DNA of 63,221 nucleotides, the filler included, from Sandaracinaceae bacterium (lineage in GTDB: Bacteria > Myxococcota_A > Polyangia > Polyangiales > JADJQN01): NCBI GenBank assembly GCA_947483975.1. It is 5 parts of 5 records of this genome, joined end to end, with 100 filler letters (N's around TTAATTAATTAA, not from the genome) between each part and the next. Parts side by side here need not be neighbours in the genome. Positions count along the whole stretch, not along the records: positions 38,060 to 50,593 come from CANKOL010000131.1; positions 50,694 to 63,221 come from CANKOL010000132.1; 3 more parts are not named here. The stretch is one strand, 5' to 3'. This document shows, one piece after another, positions 45,501 to 51,500 of this stretch. Numbering within the stretch: the stretch's first letter is position 1; every line of letters starts with the position of its first letter. The position numbers were made by a program.

Positions 45501-48500
45501 GGCACGGCGGCTTCGCTCCGCAAGGTGCAGATCATATCCGAGACCGACAGCTACCAGACGGTTCGCGATGAGAACGGCTACGGCGTTCGGGTCTATCCCG
45601 TTCGCGAAGCCTGCGCTGCGGCGCTGGGTCAAATCCAGCTGCGCGCGGAGTAGCGCAAGACTTCCGAACGTTTGGCGCGCCGGCACCCCGAAGCACCATC
45701 GCAGCGCGGGAGGACGAACGAAGGCGACCGTCCCGTTCCTGCTCATGCCCGACCTCAGCCGCGCAGCGCGCTCCCCCTCATCGCCTCGAGCAGCGGAGGG
45801 CGGGTGACGAGCGGAGCACCCGTGCGCTCGACGAGCGACCTTCGCTCAGGCCGTCTGAGCGGCGCTGCGCAGAACCTCGCGAGTGGATGCGCCACGGGTG
45901 GCGAGCACGTCACCCGGCCGACGCGGTCACGTAGGGAGCCCCGCAGACCCGCGGCTGGCCTCGGCGGCGCCGTGGTCACGCAGGTGTCACGCAGCCCCCC
46001 GCGTCGCCCGCCTGATCTCCGCGCGCGTCATCGGCCCACGCAGATACGACATCGCCCAGCGCGGCTGCAGCAGGCACGCGCCCGTCTCGCTCTGCGCGTC
46101 GCGCACCACGAACCAGCGCGCCGCGAGGTCGCGCAGCACGCGGTCGAGGGCGTCGTGCTGCGCGCCACGGAGGCCACCGAGCGCCTCGACGACGCGCTCG
46201 CCTGCTTTGTCAGGACCACGATGTGCGACGACCGCGCTATCGCTCCATTTTGACAACGCACCAAACGATAGCTATAAAACCAATCATGGCCCGCGACGAA
46301 CGACGGATCCTCGACGGCGCGCTCATGCGCGAGGCGCTGCGCGCGCTCGACGCGCACCTCGAGAAGCCGCTGCACCTCATCATCGGCGGCGGCGGCGCGA
46401 TGGTCCTGGCGTACGCCATCCCGCTGCACACGCAGGACGTGGACGCCTTCCCGGTAGAGCCGGGCCAGCTCGCCGCGGTCCAAGAGCGGGCGAGCCTCGT
46501 CGCCCGCGAGCTCAACATCGCGCCGGACTGGCTGAACCAGCACTTCGAGACGTTCACGTTCGTCCTGCCCGGTGACTACGCCTCGCGCCTGCGGAGCGTC
46601 TTCCAAGGTCAATGGCTGCGGGCGGACGCGCTGGGTCCCGAGGATCTGCTCGTGATGAAGTGCATGGCCGGGCGCGAGAAGGACCGCCCTCACGCCCGTC
46701 GCCTGATGCGGGAGCGGTGCGACCTCGACATCGTCGATCGGCGCCTCTCGGAGCTCGCGCAGAAGGGCGTCGCCAAGGCCGCGCAGGCCTGTGACTTCTT
46801 CGACGACCTCAAGGAGGAGGTCGGCGCGTGACGCGGCTGCTCCTGCACGCGCCGACCGAGGACGAGCTCGCGCGTATGTATTGGGAGCTCGCCAAGCTCG
46901 GCGCTCCGGGCGCGGGGGCTCAACGACCATGGGAATACGAGCCCACGTCGCGCGAGGAACTGACCTGCCTCGCCGCCGAGATGTGCCGCTACGACGCGCG
47001 GCTCCTCACGATCCTCGTCTCGTGGCTGGGGCAGCGCTGGGCAGAGCTCAACCCCTTGAGGCTTCGCGTCGAGATGCGCCGTATGCGCGCGCCGCAGGCG
47101 CTCTGCGTCGTGCTGGCGTTCGTGCGGAGCGCCGCCGTCGACCCCGAGCTTCGCAGGCTGGTCGCCTACGTCTCCGCGGGCGTTCTACCCGCTCGACCCG
47201 TCGAGCGTTTCTTCTTCGACAGCGAGCGCCCCGGCAGCCGCCTCGCCGAGCGGAACCTCGGTCGCAGCCTCATCGAGTACTCGCGCTGGGGCTTCCTAGG
47301 CCTCGAGCGTCCCCAGACCGACGTCTTTCGGAAGACGGACGTCGGGCGCTATGACCGCGCGAGCCGCGTCGACCTGCTGCGCCGCCTCGCCAAGCAGCGC
47401 GGCGAACTCACCCTGGCGACCTACGTCGCTGAGCTCGACCACGCTGTCAGCCGCCCGCAAGCCGTCAAAGACGCGCGCGCGGCGGGGCTCCTGCTTCGCG
47501 GCACCAAGCGCGGCGGCAAGTGGCTCTGGCCGGTCCCGGGCCTGCGGGTCACCCTCGGCCCTGCGCCGCTCGTCGCGCACACCGCGAGGGGCGAGGCCCG
47601 CGCAGACCAGCTCGCCGACGAGCAGGGCACGCTGCTCTCCGAGCCCGACGAGCACGGCTGGATCGGGGTGCGCGCCGGGGGGCGCAGCTGGCGCTTGAAG
47701 GCGGCGAGCCTGAGGGTGATCGACGCCGACGCAGCCCTCCCGCGCGCCCCGCGCAGCGACGAGCCTGCTGCGCGTCGTCGGCCGAAAGCGGCGAAGCTCG
47801 CTGTCGTCTCCCGATAGCCCATGCCAGCCAGCAGAGCCGCCCTCGCGTCGCCTACCGCGCCCCCCGCGTCGCCCGCCTGATCTCCGCGCGCGTCATCGGC
47901 CCGCGCAGATACGACATCGCCCAGCGCGGCTGCAGCAGGCACGCGCCCGCCTCGCTCTGCGCGTCGCGCACCACGAACCAGCGCGCCGCGAGGTCGCGCA
48001 GCACGCGGTCGAGGGCGTCGTGCTGCGCGCCACGGAGACCACCGAGCGCCTCGACGACGCGCTCGCGGTCGGCGTCGGTCTGCAGGCGCCCGAGGCACCA
48101 GAGGCCCGCGTTGCCGAGGGCGCGGTAGTCGAGGTCCATCGGGTTCTGCGTCGCGAGCACGCAGCCGACGCCGTACGCGCGCGCTTGCTTCATCAGGGCG
48201 ACGAGCGGGCGCTTCGTCGGCGGGTTCGCGGGGTGCGGCGGCAGATAGCCGTAGACCTCGTCGAAGACGACGAGCGCGCGGAGGCGCCCGGAGCCGGGCA
48301 GGCTGCGCACCCACGTCAGGACCTCCTCGAGCAGCAGCCCGAGCACCAGCGTGCGCTCGTCCTCGTCGAGGTGCGCGACGCTGACGATCGTCGCGGGCGT
48401 CTTGCCGTCGGTCGGCGTCATCCACGCGCCGACGTCGAGGCTGACGCCCTGCCGCCACGACTGAAACGACGGCGCCGCGAGCAGCGTGTTGAGCCGCGCC

Positions 48501-51500
48501 GCAAGCTCGCCGCGCGCGCGCTGCGACAGAAACGCCTCGAGCGGCAGCGCGCCGATCGTGTCGATGGGCGGCTCGAGCACGTCGGCGACGAGCGCGCCGA
48601 GGTCCGCCGTCTGCCCCGCGCGCAGGCGCCGCTCGGCGAGCACCGACAGCAGCGCGTGCTCGCGGCTGCGTCCCGGCTCGGCGTCGCGCCCGAGCAGGCG
48701 CAGCACGAGCGACACCGTCGCGCCGAGGGAGGTGCGCGCGCGCTCGACGTCCGTGTCCCAGAGGGTTGAGCGCCGCTCGAGCGACGACAGCAGATGCAGC
48801 AGCTCGCCGGCGTCCGCGCCCGGCGTCAGCACGCGCACGCGCGTCTTTTGGGCGAAGTCCGCGAGGTCCGCCTCGCCGAGGTGCCAGCACTCGAGCCCGT
48901 GCCGCCGCGCCTCTGCGGCCGCCTCGACGAGCGGCGCGTCGGCGACGCCGTCCTCGTCGTCGGGCGCCGCCTCGACCCAGGGCGCGAGGGCGTCGGCCGA
49001 GAGCGTCGGCAGCGCGAGCGCGAGGTTCGGCAGATCGCCCTTCACGTCGAGCATCAGCACCGGCACGCCCGCGCGCAGCGCCTCCTCGACGAGCACCGTG
49101 ACGAGCCCCGTCTTGCCCGAGCCGGACATCCCGACGACCACGCCATGCGTGACGAGGTGATGCGCCGGCAGGGCGAGCGGCCCCAGCTCGGTCGATCCAT
49201 CCAACGAGCAACTGCGACCGAGCTGGAGCGTGGGGTTCATGGCGGGTCTCCGGGGTGCGTGCGCGACGACTCAGTGCGAGATGAACGGCGACGCCCCCGG
49301 CAGGCCGGGCGCGATCGGCGGCGCAGCGGGCGCCGCGGGGGCGGCGATGACGGGCGTCACAGGGTCGGTGGCGATGGGCGTGCCGATGACCGGCGTCGCG
49401 ATGACGGGCGTCGGCGCATCTGCGGCCGGCGCGTTCTGCCCGTTGCGCTTGCCGCGCCCTGCCCAGAGCGACGGCGCGATCGACTCCACGTCGCCCTCGG
49501 TCCAGCGCAGGTACATCACGGCGCGCCGCACCTGATCGTAGAGATCGACGAGCATGGTGAACGCGCGCTGCCGAAGCTCACCGAGCACGCCCGCCTCGGC
49601 CGCGACCGTCTCGCGCTCGCTGAGCACGCGCGCGAAGCGCTGCGCGAGCTGCTCCGCGCGGTCGAGGTCGGCGAGCTTGACGCCCGTGTGTCCTTCAACC
49701 TCGGGCCAGTGCTTGCGGTAGAGCGTGACGAGCTGGAAGACGTCGAAGATCTGGTTGGCGAAGCCGACGTTGCCGCGCAGCTCCCCGAGCTCGCCCGCTT
49801 GCAGCAGCTTGCGCTTGACGAGCGTACCGGCGTCCGAGACGAGCACGTCGCGCTCGGCGACGACCTCGTCGGAGAGCTTCTGCACGTCGGTCGGCGCGAG
49901 CGCGATGAGGTACTCGGAGTGCGCCTGAGCCATCGCCTGCGCGAAGATCGGGAGCTCGTCGATGTTCACCGCCATCGCCTCCCCGAGCATCGCGGCGATC
50001 GCAGGCCGCAAGGCCCGGAGCAGCGGCAGCGCCCCCATGACCGTCAGGATGATGGTCGCGATGTCGAGGTTGATGATCCGCAGCTTGGCCGTCGGGAGCG
50101 CCATGAGTCTCGGGCGCACACTCTCGAGCGCGGCTGCGTTGCTGGTCGTCGTCGTGTTGCTGTTGGTCGCCGGGTTGGTGTTCGTGGTCGGTTCGGTGGG
50201 TGCCATGATCGTTTCTCCTTTTGTGGTTTCGTAGCGTTGAGTTACGCGGGGCTCCGCGTGTTTGGCGCTCTTCTCGGAGCGGCGACGCCCGGAGTTGCGG
50301 GTTGGCAAAAAGAATCTTCGGGCAGCCGAGAATCGGCGCCGGCGGTGCAAAACAACGTGGAAGACCAGGTCACCTGGGCGCGAACGAAGGTCGCTCCGTG
50401 GCGCAAGCCAGGTCAGGTGCGCGCCAACGAACGTCGCCCGGCGGCGCAAGTCAGGTCAGCTCAATCGGCGCGAAGCGCGCGACCACGCGGCTCGACCTGA
50501 CCTGTGCGCCAACGGTCATGCGCATCGGAACCCAGCCAGGTCACCTGGGCGGGGTAGCGGTCATGGACACCACCGGCGCGGCAGGTCACCTGGNNNNNNN
50601 NNNNNNNNNNNNNNNNNNNNNNNNNNNNNNNNNNNNNTTAATTAATTAANNNNNNNNNNNNNNNNNNNNNNNNNNNNNNNNNNNNNNNNNNNNCTCCGCG
50701 AACGCGCGCGCCGTGCGTCTCACGCGCTGCAGCGCGGGCGAGAGCGTCACGGTGTCTTGCTCCCACGCGTCGAGCGGCGCGTACTCGACGAGCGCCCGCA
50801 CCAGCCGCGGCAGCCGCGCGAAGGCGGTCCGCGGCGAGAGCGCGCTGCCCGGCGGCGCGTGCCCGCTCAGGTGAGTCGGCGGAACTCTGCGGCGCTCAGT
50901 CATGGAGGCGCTCCCACTCCGCGACCATCAGCGTGAGCTCGCGCGGGCTCCCGGCGAGCGCGCGCAGCGAGTTCACGTCCCGGACGACCTTCTCGGCGCC
51001 GGTGTCTTTCATGTAACCGAGCCCACCGAACGCCTGAAGCGCCCCGTTCGCCGCGTCTGCCAGCTCCGGCTGGGCCCGCGCCCGCAGACCGAGCACGCGG
51101 GGCAGCGCGTCGAGCCCGAGCGGTCGAGCGCTCAGCCCGTCGAGCTGCGCGCGGCAGCCATGCAGCGTCGTGCTCCCGCGCCCGAGCAAGCCGAGGACGG
51201 CGTCGTGCCGGTCGATCGTCGCGCCGCCCTGATGTCGCTGCGCCGCATACCTGCGCGCCTGCGCGTGCGCGCGCTCGACGGCGCCGAGCGACAGCGCGAC
51301 GAGCGCGAGCTGATGCGCCAACACCGCCGCTGTGACGCGCGCGAGAGAGGCCTCACGCGGCAGCGCGTCGAGCGTGCCCGGCTCGCGCGGCCGCACCTCC
51401 GCCGTCTCGAGCTCATCGAGCCCGTGCGCGTGCGGGTGCACGCTCACCTCGAGCTGCGCCCGGGCGTGCAGCTGCCAGCGAAGCGCGCCGTCGGCGTCGA

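Follow-up and report, generated by a model that had tools for sequence, protein, structure and literature searches.

At the end of contig C131, we find a gene for a protein of no known family (fam290) next to a gene for a short HerA-type ATPase. We give a probability of about one in two to the reading that the pair is a conflict or defence module, in which fam290 is a client docked by its C-terminal tail onto the ATPase. The window, that is, the whole stretch of DNA analysed (63,221 nucleotides), consists of five contigs joined end to end, and C131 occupies positions 38060–50593. The survey's finding had placed the locus at 47852..50459, and the genes, the repeat array and the promoter-like motif are all present there.

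On the minus strand, a ~43-bp repeat array (50362..50593) is followed by a GCAAC-N17-CGAGAAG motif, fam290 and the ATPase gene. The fam290 gene (49271..50206, minus strand) translates into 311 residues, and a Shine-Dalgarno-like AAGGAG (50215..50220, minus strand) can be read 8 nt before its ATG. The ATPase gene (47852..49240, minus strand) is an ORF of 462 codons for a HerA-clade P-loop ATPase of the short, client-linked type; a toxin–antitoxin-type gene (DUF6036) lies 3′ of it in the source genome (G000). The promoter-like motif (50265..50314, minus strand) comprises a T-tract, GCAAC (50294–50298), 17 intervening nucleotides and CGAGAAG (50270–50276), and no sigma-70-type promoter was found upstream of fam290 at this locus. 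We compared 55 unique fam290 loci; genes in the foreign loci were called by a crude GC-frame rule, and starts and small genes there are therefore uncertain. GCAAC-N16/17-CGA occurs at −130 to −40 in 24 of the 55. With a matrix derived solely from foreign sites, the site of the present fam290 gene scores 14.3 and seven other fam290 promoters of G000 rank among the top 23 genome hits. The motif described by the survey is thereby recovered, and its reading as an ECF-like promoter rests on sequence; transcription probably starts from an ECF-type promoter.

The fam290 protein is cytoplasmic, acidic and all-helical, with ~230 structured residues. A disordered T/N-rich N-terminus precedes the helical domain (residues ~21–250), which is followed by an APSLWAGRG motif, a Pro/Ala/Thr linker and a GLPGASPF tail. 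In the AF2 model, residues 21–250 are all-helical with a pLDDT of ~97, and confidence drops after residue 250 (<60). The Pro/Ala/Thr/Val-rich linker (residues 252–300; codons at 49307..49453, minus strand) has values of 46–63, and it differs in length among members and is gappy in a 40-sequence alignment. Pfam, NCBIfam and PADLOC (which holds no fam290 model) gave no family match, in agreement with the survey, and a structure search with the fold returned no specific neighbour. Family searches also revealed no catalytic, sensor, toxin or enzyme domain. A recount at E ≤ 1e-3 gave 4424 matching cluster representatives (4,370 in the survey), with matches in 43 of 121 genomes of the order and in 5 of 101 genomes of a phylum sample, the five including G000 and two same-order genomes; the family is mostly order-restricted, as the earlier counts (45/121 and 3/100) had indicated. 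Related genomes carry anything between 0 and 17 fam290 copies, and up to 13 ATPase matches occur in one genome; these are high numbers for a defence system. Paralogues are 30–40% identical in the client families and 55–70% in the ATPase.

The ATPase carries a Walker A motif, GMSGSGKTG (residues 37–45), and a Walker B motif, VVFDE (residues 324–328), whose residues are invariant across 46 ATPase sequences. It is a soluble, single-domain protein without a membrane segment (AF2 pLDDT 92.8, pTM 0.91). The best Foldseek matches were HerA–NurA, Sulfolobus HerA, DndH-C and SIR2–HerA (E 3e-12 to 1e-8, TM ~0.45–0.55), and the modelled fold is that of the HerA clade. PADLOC gave only weak HerA/mad8 matches, and the Pfam HerA_C/DUF87 match is confined to the Walker A region. 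The enzyme shares the P-loop superfamily and a Walker A match with YjgR/DUF853 (Pfam HerA_C, PDB 11kk), but only positions 14–66 of the 502-position Pfam profile match it and the PDB profile match spans only residues 30–80 (E 1e-7). We rejected membership of the YjgR family because the match is restricted to the Walker A region.

In a tree of 42 ATPases, one clade of 33 (support 100/98) contains all client-linked enzymes. By tail type of the client, 28 are PF, one PL and one PY, and for three no client ORF was found, one of these starting a contig. All eight ATPases examined outside the clade have a C-terminal extension of 247–342 residues behind a Pro/Ala linker, against 0 and 11 residues in two client-clade members. 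This long form occurs as a single copy in most genomes of the order, also where fam290 is absent; in family f9, 15 of 16 genomes encode it and none of the 16 encodes fam290.

The proposed docking peptide, GLPGASPFISH (residues 301–311; codons at 49274..49306, minus strand), was delineated from the alignment, the tail–ATPase association and a complex prediction. Gly301, Pro303, Gly304, Pro307 and Phe308 are nearly invariant in the 40-sequence alignment. The pattern PG..PF.{0,5}$ matches 5 of 45,738 ORF segments of G000: three fam290 proteins, the product of a gene before an ATPase on C47 that belongs to a second family (famB), and a 92-residue segment on C26. The motif, GxPGxxPF or DPxPF, is short and seldom final, usually having 1–15 residues after it. 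The survey's statement that fam290 is usually followed by an ATPase is too strong, as an ATPase follows within 1.7 kb at only 22 of the 55 loci. A PF tail is found in 21 of these 22 genes, the remaining one ending in PL, versus 13 of the 33 others (Fisher p = 1.7e-5, the loci not being independent), and no tail-less fam290 gene has an ATPase within that distance. Since those 13 genes are still tailed, the tail could serve another partner.

The same association recurs in other families. Upstream of 30 ATPase loci we found fam290 in 14, famB in three and other families in two; at least two further families with PF- or PY-type tails precede ATPases, ending in PGFPGADPF... or ...PSPYPGA. famB has PF tails (DP[ST]PF or PGMPGSDPF) in 4/4 ATPase-adjacent genes versus 2/8 others, and one of these two lies 3 kb from an ATPase. 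The C47 famB locus has toxin–antitoxin-type genes (DUF5615/PIN, PemK) 3′ of the ATPase. The earlier description of famB as unrelated to fam290 was overstated: profile–profile comparison puts the probability that they are distantly related at 82%, over 51 columns. The six ATPases of famB/DPxPF clients form one clade (100/100), while the ATPase of a GxPGxxPF-tailed famB falls (99/96) beside the ATPase of an unrelated client of the same tail type; in this one informative case, ATPase kinship tracks tail type.

A predicted complex between the ATPase and residues 240–311 of fam290 gave ipSAE values of 0.59, 0.60 and 0.55 (best of three controls, 0.00) and the verdict ‘weak support’, with runs sharing ≥35% of contacts and a partner pLDDT of 40–43. 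In calibration, 116 of 157 solved complexes attained the ipSAE mark, as did 2 of 215 mismatched pairs; values up to 0.60 account for 18 of the 157 and for both mismatches. The fam290 and famB counts and the ipSAE of 0.59 support and extend the survey's docking-peptide proposal, and we infer that the tail docks onto the ATPase of the next gene.

Tethered docking peptides include the ...IPF tip of SSB on its Gly/Pro-rich linker, the linker and C-terminal peptide of FtsZ, the ESCRT-III MIM recognised by Vps4 and the SspB tail recognised by ClpX. fam290 resembles them in having a folded domain, a disordered low-complexity linker whose length varies and a short, conserved hydrophobic P-F motif at the C-terminus that correlates with a partner enzyme. 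It differs in that the partner is a HerA-clade ATPase and the motif usually stops short of the protein end, and we saw no homology to SSB, FtsZ, ESCRT-III or SspB.

The best matches of the ATPase model come from NurA–HerA repair and from the SIR2–HerA and DUF4297–HerA anti-phage systems (PDB 9x1m, 4d2i, 8wiv/8wld, 8zit). As in these, the partner gene lies directly beside the ATPase, and many fam290 loci lie in defence islands. In contrast, fam290 is neither a nuclease nor a SIR2 protein and matches nothing, its modules are multi-copy, and what couples the two partners seems to be a tethered C-terminal peptide common to several client families. HerA carries a full N-terminal barrel before Walker A, whereas ~30 residues with two strands precede it here.

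Conflict or mobile genes lie within 6 kb of 6/7 non-redundant ATPase-bearing loci and 1/7 ATPase-less loci (raw counts without a random-gene baseline, from 14 loci of which seven belong to one genome, G045). They include Z1+DUF4420, Eco57I/MmeI-type, Mrr, AAA_21, SUKH, Gmx_para_CXXCG, AbiEi, SLATT, ThsB-TIR, CAP12-TIR and rve. Flanking GC is 0.54–0.72 in 500-nt windows, mostly 0.55–0.65 versus ~0.70 for the genome. Tail-less fam290 clades have ordinary neighbourhoods. The module was not found in a phage collection beyond 16–20% coverage of the ATPase, nor in a plasmid collection. Because the pair is multi-copy, mostly order-restricted and often located in low-GC islands with restriction, toxin–antitoxin, TIR, SLATT and immunity genes, like partner-plus-HerA pairs, its role is probably one in conflict.

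TRF reports a period-43 array at 50365–50461 (2.3 copies, 81% matches). A 6+1+6 palindrome of the CCAGGTGACCTGG type lies at 50365, 50536 and 50581 with 0–1 mismatch and at 50408 with three mismatches. Degenerate units fill the intervals, and the row layout thus gives six units up to position 50593, where the contig end cuts the array; contigs of two other runs cover it without indels and extend further. The window has no CCAGGTGACCTGG site with 0–1 mismatch elsewhere. Upstream 41–43-bp periodicity holds as reported, the best lag being 41–43 or 82–86 in 35 of 54 fam290 loci and the periodicity strong (score ≥0.6) in 21/54 upstream versus 6/53 downstream regions. The survey's statement that their sequences differ at every locus was overstated, as the arrays form families common to several loci. 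They are a genome-wide class and not private to the operon, G000 (5.29 Mb) having 47 of which ~8 are at fam290 genes. The class is strongly enriched beside fam290 yet not specific to it.

This enrichment bears on an alternative that we consider unlikely, namely that fam290 binds its own palindromic array sequence-specifically, as centromere- or operator-binding adaptors (ParR, TubR, SopB) bind their repeat arrays, and that its tail loads a HerA-type dsDNA translocase there, for positioning, segregation, autoregulation or DNA-anchored defence. Arrays beside fam290 are far above chance (a TRF array within 300 bp at 6 of 10 places in G000), a strong one stands on one side in 27/55 loci, and it accompanies the gene even when 3′, in the tail-less clades L034/L040, L037/L043, L021 and L029; arrays in that position are therefore not simply promoter elements. 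The perfect 6–8+1+6–8 palindromes of the units are spaced by ~21 and 42 bp, as expected for dimers on one DNA face, the C123 (five arrays) and C304 (four) families each have one member at fam290, and the ATPase has DNA translocases as its structural relatives. However, 39 of 40 members have an acidic fam290 domain (median pI 5.4, net charge −4), which disfavours binding of the arrays, and neither structure nor family searches found an HTH, RHH or other DNA-binding fold. Moreover, ~39 of the 47 arrays lie away from fam290 beside mutually unrelated genes, a three-gene fam290 cluster has one array, at its first gene, and the array-flanked tail-less clades have no ATPase to load. DNA binding by fam290, as the survey had suggested, is thus not supported. 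Arrays also serve as centromeres with an adaptor and an NTPase, as in F sopC (twelve 43-bp repeats), parC–ParR–ParM and tubC–TubR–TubZ. The order of array, small adaptor gene and NTPase gene, the palindromic units and the ~43-bp period are alike, but the NTPase class differs, the adaptors' counterpart is the acidic fam290, its loci are chromosomal and multi-copy, and most arrays of the class stand alone. Each unit spans four helical turns and contains a T/A tract besides one or two palindromes. The arrays are probably scaffolds for another DNA-binding protein; the client-and-motor model leaves them unaccounted for.

FtsK-like EccC reads the tail of EsxB, and coupling proteins read C-terminal signals. 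That fam290 and the other tailed proteins are likewise substrates, marked by the tail for unfolding, translocation or export by the ATPase, seems to us quite doubtful. Many diverse clients do have the same kind of C-terminal signal and a single conserved motor in common, with several client families and, at locus L047, three fam290 genes ahead of one ATPase; the clients form helical bundles whose termini are disordered, and SUKH and Gmx_para_CXXCG polymorphic-toxin immunity genes lie near one locus. Yet the motor is soluble, no conserved channel or secretion genes lie beside it in the neighbourhoods examined, fam290 lacks a toxin or enzyme domain, and the permanently fused domain on a similar linker in the ancestral ATPase better fits an accessory domain. 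A housekeeping role, in which the ATPase remodels a fam290 assembly or polymer through the tail, much as ESCRT-III recruits Vps4, and the link to defence islands is incidental, is improbable: the helical core with flexible linker and terminal peptide, the widely kept single-copy paralogue and the ordinary surroundings of tail-less clades would suit it, but no ESCRT-III, PspA or other polymer fold was among the matches listed, and copy number (0 to 17), fast divergence and low-GC island position argue against it.

In the tail-docked module that we favour, the flexible Pro/Ala-rich linker would bring a short motif (G-x-P-G-x-x-P-F, minimally x-P-F) to the protein end and tether fam290, as an exchangeable client or adaptor, to an ATPase motor with intact Walker motifs that probably forms a hexamer, as its fold relatives suggest. 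The client-linked ATPases derive from the single-copy enzyme with its own ~300-residue C-terminal domain. Since a Pro/Ala linker attaches that domain in the ancestral form, the separate clients have probably taken the place of an accessory domain that was built in. The variable client would then give specificity, and the ATPase would do the work.

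The locus lies at the end of contig C131 (positions 38060-50593 of the window, whose five contigs are joined by N spacers), and the sequence past 50593 belongs to a different contig. Read along the minus strand, it begins with an array of ~43-bp units running from 50362 to the contig end at 50593, six units by register, for which TRF reports a period of 43 at 50365-50461. The units are centred on a 6+1+6 palindrome, CCAGGTGACCTGG, with sites at 50365, 50536 and 50581 (0-1 mismatch) and at 50408 (3 mismatches); no site with 0-1 mismatch occurs elsewhere in the window. A putative promoter motif on the same strand consists of a T-tract, GCAAC (50294-50298), 17 nt and CGAGAAG (50270-50276), and is followed by AAGGAG. 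The gene for the 311-aa member of the ~290-aa family fam290 occupies 49271-50206 (-), and 30 nt after it comes the gene for a 462-aa ATPase at 47852-49240 (-). In two other sequencing runs, contigs extend through the array and past its end without indels, which rules out an assembly artefact. Across the DNA contigs of four runs, two of which break at the array, there are only SNPs and the copy number of the array is constant. Among RNA runs, none that contains the locus is listed. Rfam gave zero matches for 44000-50593 (E≤0.1), and neither a sigma-70-type promoter nor an intrinsic terminator was found in 47700-50593.

We collected 55 unique fam290 loci from this genome (G000) and 29 others, counting an ATPase as adjacent when it lies within 1.7 kb downstream. 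The survey's finding was that fam290 is usually followed by the ATPase; the pairing is clearly seen, but in 22 of the 55 loci, so that "usually" is too strong. Since the available downstream sequence is shorter than 600 nt at three loci, a few ATPases may be missed. In the family alignment, a variable T/S/N-rich N-terminus precedes a 229-residue core of constant length; then come APSLWAGRG, a Pro/Ala/Thr linker of varying length and the tail G-L-P-G-x-S-P-F plus one to a few residues. The proteins encoded next to an ATPase end in PF followed by 0-8 residues in 21 cases out of 22, and in PL in the remaining one. The 33 genes that have no adjacent ATPase carry the tail in 13 cases and lack it in 20, and no tail-less gene has an ATPase.

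Five of the 45,738 ORF segments of G000 end in PG..PF plus 0-5 residues: three fam290 proteins, the analogue on contig C47, encoded directly before an ATPase, and a 92-aa open segment at C26:24906-25184 (-). The last ends in ...GPGLPGNSPFITR, a tail of fam290 type; a fam290 core was not detected in it, and it may be a gene fragment or a further client family. The C47 analogue belongs to a second client family, famB, with 91 homologues from sources including Polyangium, Sorangium and Sandaracinus. In famB the PF motif (DP[ST]PF or PGMPGSDPF) is present in all four ATPase-adjacent genes versus two of eight others, and for one of these two an ATPase is 3 kb away. When we started from 30 ATPase loci, fam290 was upstream in 14, famB in three and other families in two; these two additional client families end in ...RPGFPGADPFDPDPEDDAT and ...PSPYPGA. 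The analogue had been described as an unrelated protein sharing the fam290 tail. The shared tail stands, but "unrelated" is not clear, as hhalign aligns 51 columns of the fam290 and famB cores with 82% probability (E 1e-5).

The ATPase contains a Walker A motif (GMSGSGKTG) and a Walker B motif (VVFDE), and residues G37, G40, S41, G42, K43, T44, D327 and E328 do not vary among 46 homologues. Its AlphaFold2 model (pLDDT 92.8, pTM 0.91) has 152 Foldseek matches in the PDB at E≤1e-3. The top hits, with TM scores of 0.44-0.55, are HerA of HerA-NurA, Sulfolobus HerA, the DndH C-domain, TdpAB, SIR2-HerA and DUF4297-HerA; VirB4 ranks lower. A PDB sequence profile search found HerA chains (E 5e-10) and YjgR (E 1e-7), each over partial length, Pfam HerA_C and DUF87 cover the Walker A region only, and MADS mad8 matches with an E-value of 4e-13. 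Judged by the model, the protein is a HerA-clade enzyme, but a short one. Membership in YjgR/DUF853 (PF05872) was rejected, as just positions 14-66 of the 502 in that profile match (41.9 bits). In HerA, an N-terminal HAS-type barrel domain carries the partner. Here, only ~30 residues precede Walker A, and the model places two strands there (residues 4-11 and 18-25), with no separate barrel visible.

Across the order we distinguish two kinds of ATPase: a multi-copy short kind, 53-70% identical to the ATPase of this locus, and a single-copy kind with 41-47% identity. The single-copy kind is found even in families without fam290, as in f9, where 15 of 16 genomes have the ATPase and none of the 16 has fam290. 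In a tree of 42 ATPases, every client-linked enzyme falls into a single clade of 33 (support 100/98). Within the tree, six ATPases paired with DPxPF-tailed famB proteins form one clade (100/100), and the ATPase of the GxPGxxPF-tailed famB protein on C47 groups (99/96) with that of an unrelated client bearing the same tail type. All eight ATPases examined outside the client clade carry a C-terminal extension of 247-342 aa behind a Pro/Ala-rich linker, and the two client-clade enzymes examined alongside have extensions of 0 and 11 aa. Most genomes of the order have the long paralogue (~780 aa) once, in G000 at C154:6245-7576 (locus L058). Its Pro/Ala linker leads to a conserved C-terminal domain (~250-300 aa) that ends in ...KK.D..V......W.P and has no family match. 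Homology of this domain to fam290 or famB was rejected (hhalign probability <1%). The client-linked ATPases probably descend from a form with a C-terminal domain covalently attached on a similar linker, and the long paralogue probably represents that ancestral form. In the phage collection, matches in three records cover only 16-20% of the ATPase, and the module was not found in the plasmid collection.

We predicted the complex between the ATPase and residues 240-311 of fam290, using a separate alignment for each partner. Three runs gave ipSAE values of 0.59, 0.60 and 0.55 versus 0.00 in all three controls, a result the tool rates as "weak support". The mark used for ipSAE is reached by 116 of 157 solved complexes and two of 215 mismatched pairs; those reaching it at 0.60 or under comprise 18 of the 157 solved complexes and both mismatches. 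At least 35% of contacts are common to the runs, with a pLDDT of 40-43 for the partner. Given the independent genomic evidence, we take the score as modest support for predicted docking of the tail on the ATPase. The best-supported part of our interpretation is the coupling itself, in which several helical protein families that evolve fast are linked to a single conserved ATPase of the HerA clade by a short C-terminal PF peptide, carried on a flexible linker. The clients (fam290, famB and others) would then be exchangeable accessory or specificity subunits.

The fam290 family itself is large and without annotation. A search with its profile yields 4424 cluster representatives (E≤1e-3), of which nearly all are ~300 aa long; the best 150 of these include no domain fusions and only a few tandem duplications of ~600 aa. 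Among the genomes sampled from the order, 43 of 121 (22 of 64 genera) contain the family, as do five of 101 in a phylum-wide sample, with G000 and two same-order genomes counted in. Matches per genome range from 0 to 17, and G000 has them in ten places. At locus L047 (G080:C101, 7182-11666), three tandem fam290 genes (280, 276 and 295 aa), each PF-tailed, are followed by one ATPase, and a 42-bp array stands upstream of the first gene only. The AlphaFold2 model, calculated with the family alignment, is all helical, with a pLDDT of ~97 for residues 21-250, values below 60 past residue 250 and one helix of 55 residues. That fam290 matches no known family or structure, as the survey had it, was borne out. 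Pfam, NCBIfam and PADLOC gave no match, 40 aligned members had no consistent Pfam hit even at E≤1, and structural searches found no specific neighbour with Foldseek against the PDB (best E 0.27) or against BFVD (best E 0.12). VIA-align against 48,161 chains reached at best a Z-score of 9.0, where ~13 is advised for helical proteins, and the hits were generic bundles of the catenin/vinculin/talin type. The ESM Atlas returned only unnamed Myxococcota clusters; DUF6261, the nearest named cluster, was dismissed since its score of 0.79 is at chance level.

The arrays had been reported to precede fam290 genes. Upstream periodicity was recovered, but the arrays are not private to the family, as only ~8 of the 47 in G000 with periods of 41-43 or 83-86 bp are at fam290 genes. 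Upstream self-similarity peaks at a lag of 41-43 or 82-86 in 35 of 54 loci (~11% expected from the share of lags), and strong periodicity is found in 21 of 54 upstream versus six of 53 downstream regions. Where the array is downstream, whole clades of tail-less fam290 are involved and the array begins at or just past the stop codon, which argues that the array travels with the gene and not with the promoter. Loci L034/L040, L037/L043, L021 and L029 are of this kind: tail-less, lacking an ATPase and with a 41-bp array directly 3' of the stop codon. In G000, TRF finds 28 arrays of period 42, six each at 41 and 43 and two each at 40 and 44. The arrays away from fam290 have flanking genes that are unrelated to one another, and many of these arrays sit between convergent genes. 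Non-coding arrays lie mostly away from fam290 (e.g., C147:3044-3348, C218:1961-2349, C41:18132-18435 and C276:4105-4377). Array sequence families, for instance those with CTGCGGCGCAGG-type and GGGTCCCGGGACCC-type palindromes and T/A tracts, span several loci, and two of the families hold exactly one fam290-linked array each. A CRISPR array was dismissed because whole 41-43-bp units stand head to tail without unique spacers and the neighbours lack cas domains.

Array units hold perfect palindromes such as GATGGGTC-C-GACCCATC, often with a second palindrome ~21 bp away, plus a T/A tract. To judge from the DNA sequence, both the palindromes and the period, which equals four helical turns, suggest that a protein binds along one face of the DNA. 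We put the chance that fam290 binds its own neighbouring array at between one in six and one in five. All but one of 40 fam290 members have an acidic core (median pI 5.4), and none of the listed fold matches of fam290 is an RHH, HTH or ParB DNA-binding fold. It is more doubtful still that each fam290 or famB paralogue would recognise one family of the phased 42-bp palindromic arrays as its own and load a HerA-type translocase there via the PF tail.

GCAAC-N16/17-CGA occurs 40-130 nt before the start codon in 24 of 55 fam290 loci (N16 in 19, N17 in five), usually with a T-tract before it and a G-rich sequence after it. ECF-sigma promoters have a consensus with AAC at -35 and CG at -10, spaced by 16-17 nt. 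With a matrix built from 17 foreign sites alone, seven G000 fam290 genes are among the 23 best hits genome-wide. The other top hits do not add up to a coherent regulon, as the genes behind them are unrelated: HepT+S1, an FHA-sigma54 activator, a YhgA-like protein and unknowns. The same promoter being driven by arrays elsewhere was rejected: a matrix hit lies within 150 bp in four of 47 arrays, all four at fam290 genes. The best hit in the genome precedes C81:7728-8204 (-) (locus L051), which encodes a 158-aa protein without a Pfam match; its C-terminus (...SALSNVLKARHETVKNAIGNIR) may resemble that of type III secretion needle proteins. A tail-less fam290 clade (L023, L025-L028) has TTGACC-type promoter-like sequences in place of GCAAC.

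Beyond the fam290-ATPase pair, there are no conserved neighbours. The GC content of the flanks is often low, at 0.54-0.72 in 500-nt windows and mostly 0.55-0.65, versus ~0.70 for the genome. We compared 14 non-redundant 15-kb loci, seven with and seven without an ATPase, a small sample in which seven loci come from one genome. Conflict or mobile genes lie within 6 kb in six of the seven ATPase-bearing loci versus one of the seven ATPase-less ones (ResIII-PLD). Near the ATPases are Z1 + DUF4420 + SAP, an Eco57I/MmeI-type enzyme, Mrr + a 1606-aa AAA_21 protein, SUKH + Gmx_para_CXXCG, AbiEi, SLATT, ThsB-TIR and CAP12-TIR, and an rve integrase. In G000, toxin-antitoxin-type genes follow the ATPase on C131 (DUF6036 nucleotidyltransferase) and C47 (DUF5615/PIN, PemK).

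On C131, a 208-nt direct repeat (45994-46201 and 47859-48066, 99% identical, 1865 nt apart) is a copy of the 3' end of the ATPase gene (aa ~393-461). The repeats enclose genes at 46223-46831 (+) and 46828-47817 (+), comprising the DUF6036 nucleotidyltransferase and a 329-aa gene without a family. This segment looks like a cassette that recombination has placed at the 3' end of the ATPase gene. On C47 (30 aa, with DUF5615/PIN and PemK around) and at locus L044 (aa 280-457), too, the complete ATPase gene is followed by a partial copy of its 3' part. Elsewhere in the window, on C128, TRF finds tandem repeats of 324-330 bp at 5538-7667 and 11034-11787 (2.2-3.8 copies, 72-77% matches), probably coding repeats of large proteins unrelated to the fam290 locus.

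The module differs from the known systems it recalls. NurA of the NurA-HerA repair pair is absent at this locus and among the Pfam hits of 134 neighbour proteins from the 14 loci. Unlike the SIR2-HerA and DUF4297-HerA anti-phage systems, fam290 has no SIR2 or DUF4297 domain in Pfam or PADLOC. Tethered docking peptides have analogies in the SSB tip, the FtsZ tail and the ESCRT-III MIM, and repeat-array centromeres in sopC, parC and tubC. The NTPase here is of the HerA clade and not of the ParA, actin or tubulin type, in contrast to plasmid partition loci (ParR, TubR, SopB). Type VII EccC is a membrane-anchored multi-domain FtsK-like ATPase and EsxB a WXG100 substrate, whereas the present ATPase is a soluble, single-domain protein of 462 aa and fam290 has no WXG100 match. 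A literature search on YjgR, FtsK-HerA/conflict systems and myxobacterial repeats, mostly at the level of titles, found no description of the module; YjgR is mentioned only in passing, and the papers listed for myxobacterial tandem repeats do not contain "42 bp". Passages of PMC7159879 mention inactive FtsK domains as effectors and no others.

Because of the island context and the precedents among HerA partners, we infer by analogy that the module may be a conflict or defence-type system. It would then be a candidate conflict system in social, large-genome bacteria, whose defence systems have, to our knowledge, received little attention. Why 42-bp tandem arrays are in such sharp excess is a separate puzzle of DNA-protein architecture, and binding of fam290 to its own array, if true, would be the more remarkable outcome. 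Array reading would imply a motor system of a hitherto unknown kind, anchored on DNA by the arrays of four-helical-turn period that are scattered through Polyangiales genomes; it could serve defence, the organisation of the chromosome or the mobility of cassettes. Coupling through the tail, if true, would be a new mode for HerA-type motors, in which exchangeable clients of several families plug in by a PF peptide and replace a domain that the ancestral enzyme holds covalently. A large unannotated family (~4,400 clusters at 50% identity) would then have a helical fold that is new and confidently predicted, together with a concrete biochemical role open to testing. Relatives that can be cultivated make direct testing possible.
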